NCBI GenBank assembly: GCA_965197645.1 | Contig: OZ240219.1 | Location: 1,376,001-1,440,000 of the forward strand | Source of the DNA: Dehalococcoidia bacterium | GTDB taxonomy: Bacteria > Chloroflexota > Dehalococcoidia > Plut-88900 | Length of the DNA stretch: 64,000 nucleotides | Direction of reading: 5' to 3' | In this document: positions 1 to 62,574 of the stretch, one piece after another | How positions within the stretch are numbered: the first letter of the stretch is position 1 | How the letters are laid out: each line of letters starts with the position of its first letter | Notes under the pieces: model-generated | Seen by the model: the letters and a program-made list of their open reading frames with translations, nothing else | Told to the model about the DNA's origin: nothing | The model's database searches: none | Translations under genes and position numbers: made by a program

Positions 1-2
1 TC

Positions 3-458
3 CAGGTGGCGGGCAACGACGCCCGGACCCTGGTGTGGGAGCTGGGCAAGGAACGGGTGACCGAGGACGACATCACCTCGCTCCCCGTCCACCACTGCTA
101 CGTCCGCGCCACCGTGGGAACGGAGCGGATGCCCGCCTTCTCGATGATGGTCAGAAAGCCGGAGGACGGAGACCCCGACGCCGCCGACCGCATCCGCGAG
201 GCCACGTCCGCCTACACCGTCTCCGACCGCGAGGGCGAGTACGCCGACGCAGACGGCCACAAGAAGGTGGGCGACTACCGCAAGGGCGTCGAGGACCTCG
301 AACAGGGAGGGACGGGAGAGCCGCAGGCCGAGGAGGACGCGGACCGCAGAACGCAGAAGAGCAAGCGAGACCGGGAAGCGTCGGACGCCGCGAGCGAGGC
401 GGGGTACGCCGACGAGGACCGCGCCGCCGAAGACGAGGGAGAGGAGGCTGAGCTATGA
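3..458 (+). CDS. C-terminal part of a VirD4/TraD-like type IV coupling protein (partial)
   Basis: QVAGNDA...EDDITSLPVHHCYVR resembles the FRVGxxDA...DLxxLPxxxxY tail of T4CP ATPases; acidic tail; ATGA overlap with the relaxase-like gene. Confidence 0.6.
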   Translation, partial: QVAGNDARTLVWELGKERVTEDDITSLPVHHCYVRATVGTERMPAFSMMVRKPEDGDPDAADRIREATSAYTVSDREGEYADADGHKKVGDYRKGVEDLEQGGTGEPQAEEDADRRTQKSKRDREASDAASEAGYADEDRAAEDEGEEAEL

Positions 459-2107
459 GACCCGAAGGATGCGAGGCGGAGCTGCTCCGCGCCCTGGCCG
501 CGATGCCCTTCCTCGACCGCCTGGAGATGGTCGCCGTCACCGGCTGGTCGAGGGGACCGGTCTACGAGGCCGCCGCAAAGCTGGAGTCGGAAGGCTTCTG
601 CGCATCGGCGCTCCACGCCACCGACATCCTCCCCCCGGCGCGGAGGTTCCACCTCACCGCAGCGGGGCTGCGCAGGCTCGCCGACGAGGAGGACATCTCC
701 CCCGACGAGCTGGTGCGCTCCCGCCCCGTCTCCGCCCAGTGGCGGCGCAACCTCATGGAGCGCATGGACGCCCTGGCCGCCGTCTATCACGTCGCGTCCA
801 TCGTCTCCAACGTCGGCTATCCCATCGACTTCCGCTGGTACAGGGCCATGCCGATGGACGCCGCCATGACCCTCCCGGACGGCAGGACCATCGGCGTCGT
901 CAGGCAGGGACTCACCGCCGACAGGTCGGGCTTCGCCAAGCGCATCTGGCGGATGCGCGACGAGCCGATGCCCGGGGCCGTGCTCATGCTCATGGCCGAC
1001 CACGTGCGGCTCAGGCACGCCCGAAGGATGCTGGCCACCACCCGCATACCCGCCCTGTTCGCCGTCGAGCGCGAGGCGGTCCTGGCCAAGCCCGGAGACC
1101 GGATATGGAGTCCCTCCGCCGTCAGCGCGTCCCTAGACCTGCGCTACGTCCTCGACCGGCTGGGTCCGGGCGGGCAGCTTCCGGTAGAGCCGGAGCCGCA
1201 GCGGGCCGACTTCCCCGCCGACGTCGCCGTCGAGGGGCCGGAGTGGGACATCTCCGACCCCATGCTGCCCTTCATGCTCAAGTCCGCAGAGAAGCGCGCC
1301 CTCGACGCCATCTCCGACTGGCCCTGGATCGCCCTGGGAGACCTGGCCGGGCTGCTGGGCGTCTCGCCCCAGAGGGCTTCGCAACTGGTCAACCCCCTGG
1401 AGGGATTCGACCTGGCGGCGCGGCCCCGCGACGCGGGCGGACGCCTCGTGGTCGCCGACCGGGGGCTGGCCCTGCTCGCCCGCAGGGACCGCACCTCCGT
1501 CGGCCTGGCGAGGAAGCGGTGGAGCGTCGCCCCGCGGGACGCCGACGCCCCGCTGGAGTGGCGCAACGTCTCCGGCAGCAGAACGCGGCAGCTTCTCAGG
1601 AACATGGAGCACACCGACGCCGTCCACGGCTTCCTGGCCGCCCTGACCGCGCAGGCCCCCCTGCTGGAGTGGGAGGTCGTCCAGCTCGACCCGCCCAGGA
1701 GGGCGTCGAGGCACTTCAGGCACGAGGGCGGGATGCGCTCCGTCAACCCCGACGCCTTCGGCGTACTGAAGAAGGGCGATGCGACCTGGGCCTTCTTCCT
1801 TGAGTGGGAGCGAAGGGCCGTGCGGCCCTCAACCATGTCCCAGCGACTCGCCCCCTATCTGCGCTACTACTCATCCCACAGACCCACCGACGACCACGGC
1901 ACGAGACCCTCGGTCCTGGTCGTCTTCGACGACGAGATCGCACAGACCCACTTCCTGCGCGTGGCGCGGGAGGAGATGCGGGCGGAGGGCGCGACGGTGC
2001 CCCTGTGGGTGTCCCACAGGGAGGCCGTCCACGCCCTGGGGCCGCTGGGACGCGCATGGCGCGTCCCCGGCGATTGGGAGTCGCCCCAGGCCCCGACGCC
2101 CCCATGA
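455..2107 (+). CDS. Replication-relaxation (Replic_Relax) family protein, apparently a tandem duplication
   Basis: C-terminal HTDAVHGF...VNPDAFG...FFLEWER motif typical of the family; two wHTH-like segments. Confidence 0.75.
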   Translation: MRPEGCEAELLRALAAMPFLDRLEMVAVTGWSRGPVYEAAAKLESEGFCASALHATDILPPARRFHLTAAGLRRLADEEDISPDELVRSRPVSAQWRRNLMERMDALAAVYHVASIVSNVGYPIDFRWYRAMPMDAAMTLPDGRTIGVVRQGLTADRSGFAKRIWRMRDEPMPGAVLMLMADHVRLRHARRMLATTRIPALFAVEREAVLAKPGDRIWSPSAVSASLDLRYVLDRLGPGGQLPVEPEPQRADFPADVAVEGPEWDISDPMLPFMLKSAEKRALDAISDWPWIALGDLAGLLGVSPQRASQLVNPLEGFDLAARPRDAGGRLVVADRGLALLARRDRTSVGLARKRWSVAPRDADAPLEWRNVSGSRTRQLLRNMEHTDAVHGFLAALTAQAPLLEWEVVQLDPPRRASRHFRHEGGMRSVNPDAFGVLKKGDATWAFFLEWERRAVRPSTMSQRLAPYLRYYSSHRPTDDHGTRPSVLVVFDDEIAQTHFLRVAREEMRAEGATVPLWVSHREAVHALGPLGRAWRVPGDWESPQAPTPP

Positions 2108-2182
2108 ACGAAGAACACGACTGCGGGAGCGTGAGCCGCACGGCCGCTCCCGCCTCTATTGCTCACAGGAGACCGAATAGCC

Positions 2183-2464
2183 ATGAGATCGCAGGACGCC
2201 AACGAAGCGAAGGGACACCGGAGGCGTGGAGGACGGGCCGTTGTCCGGCTCAACGCGGCGGCGCTCTGGCAGCGGTTGGCACTGCTCAACCGCTCCCAGA
2301 GCTGGCTCGCCGGAGAGGTCGGCATCAGCCACGGATACCTCTCCATGCTGGTCAACACGGGGCGAGCGCCCTCCGGACGCATCCGCACGCGGATGCAGAA
2401 GGCCCTTGAAGTGGAGAACTTTGAAGACCTTTTCGAACTGGAGGATAGCGATGACACAACCTAA
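2183..2464 (+). CDS. XRE-family helix-turn-helix protein
   Basis: SQSWLAGEVGISHGYLSMLVNTGRAPS HTH; AGGAG RBS upstream of ATG 2183. Confidence 0.8.
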   Translation: MRSQDANEAKGHRRRGGRAVVRLNAAALWQRLALLNRSQSWLAGEVGISHGYLSMLVNTGRAPSGRIRTRMQKALEVENFEDLFELEDSDDTT

Positions 2465-2774
2465 CGGTAAGCCCCGCATCGACGGGAGCATCGAAGACTA
2501 CGTGAACGACGAGGAGCGCCTGCTCTACGGAAACCGGCTGTCGGACGACTTCCCTGTACGCCTGGTGCGCCTGAAGGAGCTCGCCGACCTCACCTGGAGC
2601 GGATTCGCCAGGGCCATCGGCGTCGATTACAGGCAGATGTACAAGTGGCGCAAGCATGGCGTCGAGCCCAGCGGCGCGGCGATGGACCGGCTCTACAAGT
2701 TCGCCAGCCGGCTGCCCGGAGGTCTGGAGATCCTCCTGGGGGGGAGCTACCAGATGAGCTTCCTCAGGGACTGA
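2451..2774 (+). CDS. Helix-turn-helix (XRE/Cro-like) protein
   Basis: LTWSGFARAIGVDYRQMYKWRKHGVEPS; GGAGG RBS before ATG 2451. Confidence 0.75.
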   Translation: MTQPNGKPRIDGSIEDYVNDEERLLYGNRLSDDFPVRLVRLKELADLTWSGFARAIGVDYRQMYKWRKHGVEPSGAAMDRLYKFASRLPGGLEILLGGSYQMSFLRD

Positions 2775-2884
2775 TCCCATAGCGCCGCCGGTGCTCGCCC
2801 CGTCCGTCCGCACCGGCGGCCAAACCCCACACCTGAAACGAGAGGCCAGCGGCCCCGAGAGAGAAGCCGCTGCGACTGTGACCC

Positions 2885-3097
2885 ATGAGAGACAACGAAG
2901 GCAAGAGGAGACGAAAGAGGCCCGGCGAGGACGGCCCCGAAGACTCGCTGGACGCGCTGCTGTCATCCTACACCCCCAAACAGCGGGAGAAGGTCCTCAA
3001 AGGGCTGCGCGTCCTGGCGCGGGTGGCCGTCCGCTCCTTCATGGAGGAAGAGGCGGCCCGGTCCCAGGCCGAGGACGACACGGATGGGGAGGGGTGA
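2885..3097 (+). CDS. Small hypothetical protein
   Basis: 70-aa ORF, GC3-rich codons, co-oriented in the element. Confidence 0.6.
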   Translation: MRDNEGKRRRKRPGEDGPEDSLDALLSSYTPKQREKVLKGLRVLARVAVRSFMEEEAARSQAEDDTDGEG

Positions 3098-3140
3098 CGT
3101 GGGCTGTAGCTGGAAGGTGCGCGGCGGAGGCCGCAGCCTG

Positions 3141-3497
3141 CTAGTAGAGGATCATGTGCGTGGGAACCAGACGCTGAGCTTCGGGGTCCACCGCCAGGGC
3201 CAGACCCTCCAGGGTGTAGGCCCCCAAAAGCGGAGGGGCCTCGTCCTTTCCGAAGACGACGATGGTGACTACGCTCTCGCCGTCGATGGTGGCCCACGCC
3301 TGTCCGTACTCCATCTCGACGCGCCGCCCGTCGGCCACCAGGAACCCCCGCTTGCCCGTGGCCTCGATGCCCAGCTCCCGCAGAAGGCTTGAGGGCAGCG
3401 TGGTGAATGACGCGCCGGTGTCCACCGTCGCCTCTATGTACCGTCCCTGTTGGCCGTCCATGCTGGCAATCCGCAGCGGCCACTTGAATGTCCCCAT
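3141..3497 (-). CDS. Clan AA (retropepsin-like) aspartic protease
   Basis: VDTGASFT catalytic motif and LLGAYTLEGL C-terminal motif. Confidence 0.85.
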   Translation of the reverse strand: MGTFKWPLRIASMDGQQGRYIEATVDTGASFTTLPSSLLRELGIEATGKRGFLVADGRRVEMEYGQAWATIDGESVVTIVVFGKDEAPPLLGAYTLEGLALAVDPEAQRLVPTHMILY

Positions 3498-3574
3498 AGA
3501 GGGAGCCTCTCCATCGCAGTTTTCTACCACCCCATTTTACCCCATTCGGACCGCTCTATACAGGGGAGCGGCCA

Positions 3575-3625
3575 TTGACAGGGCGGCCCGTTTCGTTCAT
3601 GATAAGAGTAAGACTTAGTATTACT
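3575..3625 (+). promoter_or_regulatory. Sigma70-type promoter with an imperfect palindromic operator for the RHH-recombinase operon
   Basis: TTGACA (3575-3580), 17 nt, CATGAT (3598-3603); AGTAAGACTTAGTATTACT (3607-3625) is near-palindromic. Confidence 0.6.
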
Positions 3626-3644
3626 ATGGAAGGCAAAAAAACAC

Positions 3645-3869
3645 ATGCCCAGGACGACGGAGATCATCACCTTCTCGTTGCCCCCGGAGATGGCCGGGCA
3701 GGTCAGGCAACTGATGGAGGAGGAAGACCGCACCATGAGCGCCCTCATCCGCGAGGCGCTCCGCCTGTATATGCAGGAGAGGGAGTGGCTGCGGCAGGAG
3801 CGCCGCCAACGGGCCGAGACCCGCAGGAACCAACAGCGGACAGACACAAGAAGGAGGACGAGCAGATGA
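3645..3869 (+). CDS. CopG/ribbon-helix-helix DNA-binding protein
   Basis: IITFSLPPEM...RTMSALIREALRLY pattern; ATGA overlap with the recombinase. Confidence 0.85.
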   Translation: MPRTTEIITFSLPPEMAGQVRQLMEEEDRTMSALIREALRLYMQEREWLRQERRQRAETRRNQQRTDTRRRTSR

Positions 3870-5500
3870 ACGAACGACACGACTACACGCCAGCGGCCCT
3901 CTACGCCAGGGTGTCCAGCGACCGCCAGGACGTGGACCTGTCCGTGGCCGCACAGCTCAGGGCGCTCAGGGACTACGCCGACAAGAACGGCTACCTCGTC
4001 GCCCGCGAGTTCGTGGACGAGGCCGAGAGCGGACGCATCGCCGACCGCCCGGAGTTCAGCAAGATGATCGACGAGGCGAGCAGGCCCCAGGCTCCGTTCC
4101 AGGAGATTTTGGTCTGGAAGTTCTCCCGCTTCACCCGCAAGCGCGAGCACGCCGTCGCCTTCAAGTCCATGCTCCGGCGCAAGGGCGTCAGGGTGGTCTC
4201 CATCACCGAGCAGGCCGACGACAGCCCGACCGGCAAGCTGCTTGAGGGAATCATCGAGAGCGTGGACGAATTCTACAGCGAGAATTTGGCCCAGGAGGTC
4301 TTGCGAGGCATGAGAGAGGCCGCCTCTCGCGGCTTCTGGGTCGGCAGCAAGGCGCCCTACGGCTACAACCGCATCATGGTGCAGGACGGGCCGAAGAAGC
4401 GCCCCACGCTGGAGCTGGACCCGGATACGTCCCCCGTCGTCAAGCGCATCTTCGGCATGTCCGAGGCGGGAAGCGGGATGGTGGACATCACCCGCGCCCT
4501 GAACGACGACGGCATCGCCAGCCCAGGGGGAAAGCTCTGGGGCAAGACCGGCGTCCACAAGGTCCTTACCAACGAGGCTTACACGGGGACTCTCCTGTGG
4601 GGCGTGAACGCCAAGGACGGGGCCGACCCGGTGCGGGTGGAGAAGGCATTCCCGGCCATCGTCTCAAAGGCTCAGTTTCAGCGAGTCGGCAGGCAGCTGC
4701 GCCGCCGCGCCCCCAAGGTCGTGCATCCCCGAAGGGCGGGAAGCTCCTACCTGCTTAGCGGGCTGATCAAGTGCAAGACCTGCAAGAGGGCGCTCAGCGG
4801 CCAGTATTCCAAGAGCGGCCAGTTCCCATACTACGTCTGCCAGTCCCTTATGAAGCGGGGCAAGGAAGCCTGCAAGACCCCCAGGCTCGCCGCCCGGCGC
4901 TTCGAGGAGATGGTCGTCAACAAGATTCGCTCGAACGTCCTCACCGACTCCAACATCCGCGCCCTGGTGAAGGTCGTGGACGAGCAGATGGACGGTGTGG
5001 CGGGTGAGCAGCGCAAGAGGCTGGAGACCATCCAGTCCGAGCTTGCCGACGTGCGCCGCAGGCTCGACCGGCTCTACGACCTCGTGGAGACCACTGATAT
5101 GGAAATCAACGACTTCAGGCCCCGTATCCGCGACCACAGGGAGCGGCAGGAGCGTCTTGAGGCGGCGGAGGCGGAGGCGAGAGCGAGCCTCGGCCAGCGC
5201 AGGAAGGTGCTGGAACAGGTGGAGACCATCACCGCCTACGCCCAGGATATGAGCAGGTTCCTGAAGAAGAGCGGGCTGACCGAGCGCAGGACCTTCATCG
5301 AGTCCTTCGTCAAGGAGATCGTCGTCACGCCCGACAATGCCCTGATGCGCTACACGGTGCCCATGCCGGAGGATAGCCTCGCACCCGGCATGAGCGCCGA
5401 GGACATGGCGCTGAACGGCTCGGTGCTATCTACCGTGCCGGTTGGTGGGCCATCCTGGACTCGAACCAGGGACCTCGGTCTTATCAGGACCGCGCTCTAA
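3866..5500 (+). CDS. Large serine recombinase (resolvase + recombinase + zinc ribbon)
   Basis: YARVSS catalytic motif, SRFTR, G..PYGY, LLSGLIKCKTC, coiled coil; AGGAGG RBS before ATG 3866. Confidence 0.95.
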   Translation: MNERHDYTPAALYARVSSDRQDVDLSVAAQLRALRDYADKNGYLVAREFVDEAESGRIADRPEFSKMIDEASRPQAPFQEILVWKFSRFTRKREHAVAFKSMLRRKGVRVVSITEQADDSPTGKLLEGIIESVDEFYSENLAQEVLRGMREAASRGFWVGSKAPYGYNRIMVQDGPKKRPTLELDPDTSPVVKRIFGMSEAGSGMVDITRALNDDGIASPGGKLWGKTGVHKVLTNEAYTGTLLWGVNAKDGADPVRVEKAFPAIVSKAQFQRVGRQLRRRAPKVVHPRRAGSSYLLSGLIKCKTCKRALSGQYSKSGQFPYYVCQSLMKRGKEACKTPRLAARRFEEMVVNKIRSNVLTDSNIRALVKVVDEQMDGVAGEQRKRLETIQSELADVRRRLDRLYDLVETTDMEINDFRPRIRDHRERQERLEAAEAEARASLGQRRKVLEQVETITAYAQDMSRFLKKSGLTERRTFIESFVKEIVVTPDNALMRYTVPMPEDSLAPGMSAEDMALNGSVLSTVPVGGPSWTRTRDLGLIRTAL

Positions 5501-5519
5501 CCACCTGAGCTAATGGCCC
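5443..5519 (-). tRNA. tRNA-Ile(GAT)
   Basis: Reverse complement GGGCCATTAGCTCAGGTGGTTAGAGCGCGGTCCTGATAAGACCGAGGTCCCTGGTTCGAGTCCAGGATGGCCCACCA forms a cloverleaf with encoded CCA. Confidence 0.97.
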
Positions 5520-5561
5520 ACGCTCACCGATATCATCATATCACTGGTCGCTGGGGAGTGA

Positions 5562-6452
5562 CTAGCTTGGGACGCCGGCAGGGGATTTCATCTTCGCGTT
5601 GATAGTGCCGGTGGAGATGATGTGCTTCTGCATCTGCATCTCCTTCGGATCGAATCCCAGGGCCAGGCCAACCATCTGGGGAAGGTGCAGTATGGGGAGG
5701 TCTATCCGCTTGCCTTTTTGGGCCGCCGCCCGGGGCTGGTTTCCGTCCAGTTCCAGGTGGCACAGGGGGCACGGGGTCACGATGGCGTCCGCTCCCTTTT
5801 CCTTGGCCTCCAGTGTGTGGTTTCCGCACATCTCCAGCGAGTTCTCCTCGTTGGGGATCAGTATGGGAAACCCGCAGCATTTGCCCTTGCCTTTGGTGGC
5901 TATTAGCTCTCCGCCCAGCGCCTCGATGGTGTTCTCCAGGGCCTTCTTGCGGCCCTCTTTGCCCTTGGGGACCACTACCTCTGGGGGACGGCGCAGGTAG
6001 CAACCGTAGAACGCGGCCAGCTTAAGATCGGATAGGGGAGTGACAACCTGTTCCTTCAGCTTATCCAGGCCATAGTCCTCGTCCAGGACCCAGAGGAAGT
6101 GCTTGACCTCGGTGGTGCCCTTGTACTCCAATCCCTCTTCGGCCAGGAATTCCCGATTGATCCGCTCTCGATACCCGGGGTCGTTTACCAGCCTGTGGTT
6201 GGCCTGCATGATAGTGCCTTGGCAGGTGCTGCAGATGGTCATGATGGGGAGGCCCATTACCTCGGCCTTGGCCAGGGTACGAGCGTTGATCGGATCCGAG
6301 ACCTCTCGGCTGAGGACTCCGGCCCCTGTGCAGCCCACGTCTTTCAGTTCCACCAGCTCGATGCCGAGCTTCTTGGTCACCTTCACCGCTGCCGGGTAGA
6401 GCTCGGGGCAGCCGCCGCGAGAGACGCAGCCTGGGTAGAATGCATACTTCAT
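5562..6452 (-). CDS. CCG-domain subunit (HdrB-like / type E SDH anchor subunit)
   Basis: YPGC, CTG, CSTC, FYGC, CCG and CPLC motifs; ATGA overlap with sdhB. Confidence 0.85.

Positions 6453-62497: not shown

Positions 62498-62574
<77 letters not shown>

Follow-up and report, generated by a model that had tools for sequence, protein, structure and literature searches.

The closest described counterpart of the locus reported here is found in the ssrA islands of Dehalococcoides, which carry at the island edge a serine recombinase of ~540 amino acids, DsiB (McMurdie et al. 2011, BMC Genomics 12:287, PMC3146451). According to that account, dsiB overlaps the attachment (att) site and is perhaps fully functional only on the circle or beside another island, the islands have a 20-bp direct repeat with a crossover in the T-loop and are described as mobilizable only, and CcrA and CcrB are named as relatives of DsiB (PMC3146451). 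The present study concerns a large serine recombinase (LSR) and the integrated element whose right-hand edge it occupies, designated element A, in a window of 64,000 nucleotides of a Dehalococcoidia bacterium (G000:C1:1376001-1440000, where G000 is the 3.2-Mb single-contig source genome). Very probably, the attP of this LSR overlaps the 3' end of its own gene, and exchange within the CCACCA end of a tRNA gene inserts an element of ~49 kb, leaves the tRNA intact and swaps the C-terminal tail of the recombinase on integration. The design has been known since the 2011 description of dsiB; what differs here is the tRNA targets, the exchange in CCACCA, a ribbon-helix-helix (RHH) partner gene and the presence of conjugation-like genes.

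According to the published description, DsiB and the window LSR come from the same bacterial class, both have an open reading frame (ORF) that overlaps the att site at its 3' end, and neither has a stop codon inside its island. DsiB targets the transfer-messenger RNA (tmRNA) gene ssrA, whereas the family described here is found at ordinary tRNA genes of at least 10 anticodon types; the ssrA islands have the 20-bp repeat and the T-loop crossover, whereas here the exchange would lie in CCACCA with a repeat of 6–9 bp. The ssrA module comprises the small serine recombinase DsiA and RecF-, ParB- and Mom-like genes, whereas the upstream partner here is the RHH gene, and the ssrA islands are mobilizable only, whereas element A carries type IV secretion-like genes. 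It is by this published description that the LSR family is set apart from DsiB. A preliminary description of the window, made from its letters alone, had called tRNA targeting less usual for LSRs, which is a fair statement, but the same overlap and the same hypothesis had already been published for dsiB at a tmRNA gene (PMC3146451). In the literature searched, mostly at abstract level, no description of tRNA-tip targeting by serine recombinases was found.

Serine integrases such as those of phiC31, Bxb1 and A118 have a three-domain build with a coiled coil, and their short att sites consist of two inverted half-sites round a 2-bp crossover with no long shared core. They are prized for genome engineering and in nature usually insert into one protein-coding gene; to our knowledge, attP lies outside the integrase ORF in integrases of this type and the targets are mostly protein-coding. 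In contrast, the putative attP of the window LSR overlaps the 3' end of its ORF, and no relative above 37% identity was found in phage or plasmid records and none in viral contigs. Archaeal integrases of the SSV1 type are split on integration, and in the integration-dependent immunity of mycobacteriophages, with attP in the repressor gene, integration removes a degradation tag. In these systems, as here, the att site lies inside a coding region and the integrated and free forms make different proteins, which makes them a model for a regulatory reading of the tail swap; however, they use tyrosine integrases and the protein is split or the tag lost with proven effect, whereas here 16–17 LSR residues change. 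The staphylococcal CcrA and CcrB are also large serine recombinases that insert an island at the 3' end of one conserved gene, but there two recombinases act jointly on a protein-coding target, whereas a single LSR and a tRNA target are found here, and we know of no overlap between recombinase ORF and site in CcrA/CcrB.

The features on which the proposal depends are the following (window positions).
3866–5500, plus strand: LSR ORF in its integrated form, 544 amino acids (ORF list and Pfam).
5443–5519, minus strand: tRNA-Ile(GAT) with the 3' end CCACCA (ARAGORN).
5443–5500, no strand: overlap of the LSR ORF with the antisense tRNA-Ile; bases 5449–5500 are host DNA.
5428–5448, plus strand: P arm (element half-site), ATCTACCGT + GCCGGT + TGGTGG, coding for ..STVPVGG; it recurs at LSR 3' ends and, inverted, at element left ends.
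5447–5448, no strand: putative crossover dinucleotide GG, complementary to tRNA positions 72 and 71 and placed by the symmetry of 9-6-4-[2]-4-6-9 sites.
1–5448, no strand: right-hand 5.4 kb of element A, delimited by attL and the rebuilt attB; its left end lies beyond the window.

The LSR frame begins with the ATG at 3866 and stays open until a TAA at 5498–5500, inside tRNA-Ile(GAT), which is the only copy of this tRNA gene that ARAGORN found in G000. The preliminary description had stated that the ORF has no stop before the tRNA and that its tail is the reverse complement of tRNA-Ile; both statements hold, the match being exact over the 58 nt of overlap, and the protein end ..VGGPSWTRTRDLGLIRTAL* is read from the reverse complement of tRNA positions 5443–5500. 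By its domain build, the 544-residue protein is predicted to be a large serine recombinase. It has Pfam matches to Resolvase (E 1.3e-32, residues 10–156), Recombinase (PF07508, E 1.4e-19) and Zn_ribbon_recom (PF13408, E 9e-12). The N-terminal resolvase-type catalytic domain includes the nucleophile Ser, and S17, S18, R20 and Q21, together with the zinc-ribbon residues C303, C306, C325 and C336, are invariant among 32 aligned relatives. AlphaFold2 predicts a coiled-coil insertion in the zinc-ribbon domain, formed by two long helices at 361–409 and 414–468, with a predicted local distance difference test (pLDDT) score of ~55–85.

The P half-site ATCTACCGT-n6-TGGTGG would coincide with the final codons that the element supplies, ..S T V P V G G. 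Its TGGTGG is the reverse complement of tRNA positions 71–76 (C71 C72 A73 C74 C75 A76), and throughout the family LSR ends show the same 9-6-6 arm. Identical arms (e.g. L042-L049, L052, L095) diverge directly past TGGTGG into different tRNAs or other sequence, and the element therefore ends at or within TGGTGG. At tRNA-Ala, in the pair L029/L124, attR continues with AGC of the host tRNA and attL with GCC of the element, which places the exchange inside TGGTGG. G417 is related to G032, and in it the flank of the G032 attL runs straight into TGGTGGGCGGCAC; this is the 3' end of tRNA-Val(CAC), which the G032 LSR abuts, and the pair bounds the exchange to TGGTGGGC. The G417 joint is the closest approach to an empty site that was found; past those 13 nt lies the end of a different element. 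The identity of attP and attB amounts to 6–9 bp, and only TGGTGG(GCC) is repeated at the two ends. An architecture of two inverted half-sites, 9-6-4-[2]-4-6-9, is seen at attL, at attR and at complete 40-bp sites, 9-6-TGGT-GG-4-6-9, which occur at G000 1928335-1928374, L090 and L101; the cut positions on it are putative, and the 2-bp crossover would be the final GG, window 5447–5448. A refined attP pattern matched two metagenome contigs, and in one of these, L142, a more distant recombinase reads across a complete 40-bp site. The attP had been proposed to lie inside the recombinase gene, and this agrees with what is seen: the half-site is formed by the last LSR codons, with the exchange in TGGTGG adjoining GGTGGGCC.

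The preliminary description had also called for a far att site upstream of the window. Such a site, attL, is present at G000 1332299-1332323, at a distance of 43.7 kb from the window start, giving an element A of ~49 kb (G000 1332305-1381448). This site consists of host flank, TGGTGG, the inverted arm GCCT GAGTGG ACGGTAGAT and then a conserved continuation. Joining the outer flanks by script produced an intact tRNA-Ile(GAT) that ARAGORN accepts as valid, and joining the inner parts produced a 545-codon ORF. The pattern TGGTGG-n10-ACGRTAGAY had 10 matches in five genomes and 14 in 7 of 12 family genomes, against none for the reversed control; all 24 matches continue with GCC, although four of them are the same places in one genome entered twice. 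A far site of this kind lies 44–65 kb from the LSR, on the expected side and strand, in four of the five genomes tested. Approximately 25–34 kb of element A is homologous with two paralogous elements of G000, D and E.

Relatives were gathered from a collection with one genome per species, which yielded 184 LSR relatives, and 80 loci were kept. The arm could be located by pattern in 70 of these, 30 of which are at a tRNA. In 31 of the 80 loci, from other Dehalococcoidia genomes, the LSR ORF ends in or traverses an opposite-strand tRNA; the targets are Ile GAT, Ala GGC/TGC, Val GAC/CAC/TAC, Met CAT, Lys CTT/TTT and Leu TAG. Wherever the arm was located at a tRNA (30/30), the tRNA 3' base is the T of TGGTGG, at the same codon position and with an offset of 0. 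The overlap is therefore more than chance, given the same-frame paralogues, the 31 tRNA loci and the constant offset. A 77%-identical LSR in another genus (G002) lies at the same tRNA-Ile with the same downstream genes adjoining. Of the other 40 located arms, 18 lead into the tail of a convergent second recombinase, read antisense; seven and three lead into two recurrent non-tRNA sequences, respectively, one leads into an arm that belongs to a different element, and 11 lead into other sequence including tRNA fragments. With tmRNA search switched on, ARAGORN found no tmRNA at the joints of the 80 loci.

G000 itself has six LSR paralogues, A to F, of which A is the window copy that ends in tRNA-Ile. 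Paralogue B (G000 1791395-1793130, minus strand) traverses the whole of tRNA-Lys(CTT) and 80 nt more to its stop, and paralogue C, whose N terminus is absent, ends in tRNA-Ala(GGC). A, B and C share the same frame relative to the tRNA, and D, E and F end in non-tRNA sequence. In this genome CCA is encoded in 47 of 50 tRNA genes and 10 of the 50 end in CCACCA; an LSR is present at three of those 10. The family appears to read a feature common to many tRNA genes, namely an encoded CCACCA end together with the acceptor and T-arm.

In the proposed mechanism, DNA exchange would occur within TGGTGG/CCACCA, by symmetry at the final GG. The tRNA would stay whole because the exchange falls within its last six bases and the element only re-supplies ACCA. 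The LSR ORF would continue into host DNA until the antisense tRNA chances on a stop, and integration would swap a conserved 17-residue tail, read across attP into the left arm, for 16 residues that tRNA-Ile determines. The putative crossover falls within codon 528 (GGG); since GG followed by any base encodes Gly, residues 1–528 are fixed by the element, and residues 529–544 are set by the tRNA gene. The integrated tail at tRNA-Ile is PSWTRTRDLGLIRTAL (16 residues) and the reconstructed tail of the circular form is PEWTVDGTIFEMWLGRL (17 residues), in agreement with the earlier suggestions that the alternative tail could be translated from a reconstructed attP and that the integrated and excised forms encode different C termini. 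Across loci, the integrated tail after the shared ..GG varies from one residue, at tRNA-Val GAC, to more than 100. In the circular form, 17 distinct left arms from 24 loci give the consensus GGP-x-x-T-V/I-D-x-T-I/V-F-E-M/L-W-L-G-x-L, and 16 of them stop 18–22 codons after the first Gly, 10 at codon 19. The ratio of nonsynonymous to synonymous variation (pN/pS) was computed on codons 10–17, outside a 25-bp half-site, for the 16 arms that remained after L132, which reads into another gene, was dropped. It is 0.32 in the LSR frame; the other two forward frames give 0.61 and 2.56, and the three reverse frames give 0.59, 6.31 and 0.63. This is a hint that the tail of the circular form genuinely belongs to the protein and is under selection. 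AlphaFold2 was applied to the integrated form and to L101, a circle-like natural locus in which a related LSR reads into a left arm; the mean pLDDT is 68.1 in each model, both tails lie below 50, and no structural clue emerges. Most likely, the native LSR is that of the circular form, and an arbitrary tail is tolerated after integration; the swap may have a regulatory role. We infer that this LSR, rather than another enzyme, moves element A and that the element is still mobile.

Genes and sites next to the LSR bear on how the recombinase might be controlled. They comprise the following (window positions).
3–458, plus strand: 3' end of a 1022-codon ORF; the part in the window is without a Pfam match, and the upstream part matches TrwB_AAD_bind with E 6e-4, below the curated cut-off.
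455–2107, plus strand: Replic_Relax (relaxase-like) protein, 550 amino acids (Pfam E 4.2e-7, 30.7 bits versus a cut-off of 25.3).
3575–3603, plus strand: promoter-like site before the RHH-LSR pair, TTGACA-17-CATGAT, a match to consensus at 10 of 12 positions.
3645–3869, plus strand: RHH (CopG-type) gene (Pfam RHH_1, E 4.5e-8), whose stop overlaps the LSR start (ATGA).
5535–5564, minus strand: promoter-like site before tRNA-Ile, a consensus match.

In 69 of the 80 loci, the strand of the LSR also carries an RHH homologue, at most 300 nt upstream of it. From its overlap with the LSR start, the RHH gene is predicted to be translationally coupled to the LSR, and its product is a candidate regulator or directionality factor. 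The preliminary description had supposed that no separate recombination directionality factor would be needed; with this gene conserved upstream of the LSR, that cannot be claimed. The other neighbours of the LSR are an aspartyl-protease-like ORF (window 3141–3530), helix-turn-helix (HTH) proteins and the Replic_Relax protein, and no second resolvase-domain gene is adjacent to it. No terminator-like site was found downstream of the tRNA on the minus strand within 3300–5442; given the promoter-like site before the tRNA, transcripts of the tRNA could therefore run antisense into the LSR gene.

The tail swap could also be read as a built-in switch, in which only the circle makes the native LSR with its 17-residue tail, the integrated form differs in activity, direction or stability, and antisense transcription from the tRNA promoter helps to keep the inserted element quiet. 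The conservation of the attP-encoded tail speaks for it, since length (16 of 17 arms), residues and the lowest pN/pS of the six frames are all maintained, as does the possible entry of antisense transcripts into the LSR gene, and the same idea was raised for dsiB (PMC3146451). However, the integrated tails are arbitrary and yet the elements evidently reached many tRNAs, both tails have low pLDDT, the conserved tail DNA is in part the P' half-site itself, and the conserved RHH partner offers an ordinary route to control. We consider a switch of this kind unlikely, though more probable than the alternatives discussed next. A more elaborate version, and a slightly less probable one, holds that a palindromic att site also codes for a C-terminal module, ..VLSTV-xxGGPxx-TVDGTIFEMWL, that is complete on the circle only; its second half would be deleted at any CCACCA-ending tRNA, which would alter direction or lifetime, and the gene would be damped by antisense transcription. 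If true, this would be a self-contained memory of the integration state in a serine recombinase with a multi-tRNA target range.

If the usual design at tRNA and tmRNA genes applied here, the crossover would lie deeper in the gene, within the T-loop or the anticodon loop, and at least 20 nt of the tRNA 3' part would be element DNA. Tyrosine integrases and the ssrA islands follow this design, and for the latter the published account reports the 20-bp repeat and T-loop crossover (PMC3146451). The P' arm does resemble the acceptor and T-stem of tRNA-Ile (GGGCCTGAGTGGAC versus GGGCCATCCTGGAC). Nevertheless, no repeat of at least 14 nt of the region 5381–5560 was found within 150 kb upstream, and no copy of at least 16 nt of the 3' end of tRNA-Ile or tRNA-Lys, with two mismatches allowed, within 200 kb. 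Identical arms meet different tRNAs right past TGGTGG, and attL retains only TGGTGG and element sequence, so that a deeper crossover is largely refuted and must be regarded as highly improbable. It is scarcely credible that the read-through is accidental and comes from the decay of a gene that has lost its stop, with the element a fossil and the overlap meaningless: although paralogues C and F are N-terminally truncated and the arm of E is degenerate, the same frame and junction are found in 30/30 tRNA-linked relatives, which refutes it for the family, the full-length ORF keeps its three domains with invariant catalytic and zinc residues, and its arm is paired with a matching far site.

Three other candidates were tried and rejected. 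Two matches, a 12-mer and a 13-mer at 1375626 and 1307047, were considered as repeats of the tRNA end, but these are at chance level and without matching context. A model in which attP is a perfect TGGTGG..CCACCA palindrome, with "left ends" at 1334394, 2966750 and 2533650, was rejected because no central dinucleotide fits, no metagenome contig matches it and the arms concerned have the opposite polarity. A loose class-wide att pattern gave mostly chance matches and was not used, and the unpublished genome G248, which was among its matches, supports none of the claims made here.

Several points weigh against integration by exchange in CCACCA as set out above. The fifth genome tested, that of L050, is without a correctly placed far site. 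Searches with the left part of element A and with its true flank, in 30 relatives each, gave no empty tRNA-Ile site, and in the relatives of G000 only the neighbouring transporter gene is conserved. Ten metagenome runs hold part of the window stretch, and in the four examined neither a circle nor an empty-site joint was seen; the contigs are short and break at the tRNA, none bridges 5443–5490, and they are uninformative either way. The position of the crossover at GG would follow from symmetry alone, and the pN/pS values come from 16 short, related sequences. Finally, a second arm of opposite polarity lies 2 kb inside the left end of element A (1334374–1334394), and likewise in D and E, and the ends of the elements therefore have a more complex history.

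Opposite-polarity (CC) arms of the LSR 3'-end type are present at G000 1334374-1334394, 2966730-2966750, 2533630-2533650 and 2005890-2005910, either at the left ends of A, D and E or close to them. Their polarity fits that of a sister LSR type with the arm ATCTTCCGT-n6-TAGT-CC (L101, L090). Stacking, module exchange or a recombinase-made inversion could be their source; tandem stacking of islands is also described for the ssrA islands (PMC3146451). The 2-kb module between attL and the inner arm (G000 1332585-1334147) encodes a protein with an Mrr_cat restriction-endonuclease domain (E 6.8e-16) and two small ORFs without Pfam matches, one of which is, by eye only, like the aspartyl-protease-like ORF at 3141–3530.

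Other arrangements were observed within the family. Paralogues B and C of G000 face each other ~12 kb apart, between convergent tRNA-Lys and tRNA-Ala genes. C (G000 1802180-1803460, plus strand) and F (1905514-1904303, minus strand) both have the catalytic domain absent, begin at the same first residue and carry a common replacement, ..VDWITD..LAQEVTRG, which suggests a common event or a recurrent insertion point. In 18 of the 80 loci (e.g. L028, L037, L040) the LSR is read ~100 codons into the antisense of the gene of the convergent second recombinase, whose own stop lies ~20 nt ahead of a sense-oriented ..GGCCCACCA. In seven of the 80 (L027, L031, L058, L064, L068, L088, L103) the recurrent sequence ..ACTGAATTGCGAACTTTTCG.. 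begins 7 nt past TGGTGG; it is also found at G000 2533590-2533629 and at L144 in G417. In G417 it comes after a 13-nt 3' fragment of tRNA-Val and without an LSR arm, and for this reason the ACTGAATTGCGAACTTTTCG sequence probably represents the terminus of a different family of elements, one that displaces a short piece of the tRNA. The tRNA-Pro(GGG) gene of the window (62498–62574, minus strand) ends in CGACCA rather than CCACCA, and no LSR adjoins it.

Element A is probably an integrative conjugative element, as judged from the relaxase-like, VirB4/TraC-like and TrbL/VirB6-like genes that it carries. The VirB4/TraC-like ATPase (P-loop_TraG, E 1e-12), TrbL/VirB6 (26.7 versus 25.9 bits) and Replic_Relax matches are above the cut-off, and those to PrgI and TrwB_AAD_bind are below it. 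Further cargo includes a Druantia-like defence set (G000 1334529-1345402), comprising a DruA-family protein (PF14236, E 3.5e-85), a 1856-codon ORF that carries the domains DEAD, Helicase_C and MZB, and two large ORFs that have no Pfam match; the GC content of the set at third codon positions is 0.5–0.6, below the 0.85–0.94 of the element core. Also present are a hybrid sensor that combines, in one protein, a GAF-PAS histidine kinase and a response regulator that has a DNA-binding domain (1347535–1349919, minus strand), a 2833-codon ORF with cadherin, Fn3 and PPC domains (G000 1350546-1359047, plus strand) and a 445-residue protein of several HTH_3 repeats (1362317–1363654, minus strand).

In the four metagenome runs (X5, X7, X8, X1), LSR-like contigs over window 3900–5500 sum to depths in the thousands, with a peak of ~41,800 over the catalytic domain versus ~13 for the host flank, and the LSR family is therefore very abundant across these communities. 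The effect of a C-terminal extension was raised as a question for dsiB in 2011, and no test of it was found in the literature searched, mostly at abstract level. Since every move gives the LSR a new tail, the family lends itself to a clean natural test of whether such an extension affects direction or stability. For annotation, it follows that LSR-type stop codons within tRNAs are genuine and are not to be "corrected". The family appears to be widely spread in Dehalococcoidia, and its insertion appears to leave the tRNA undamaged.

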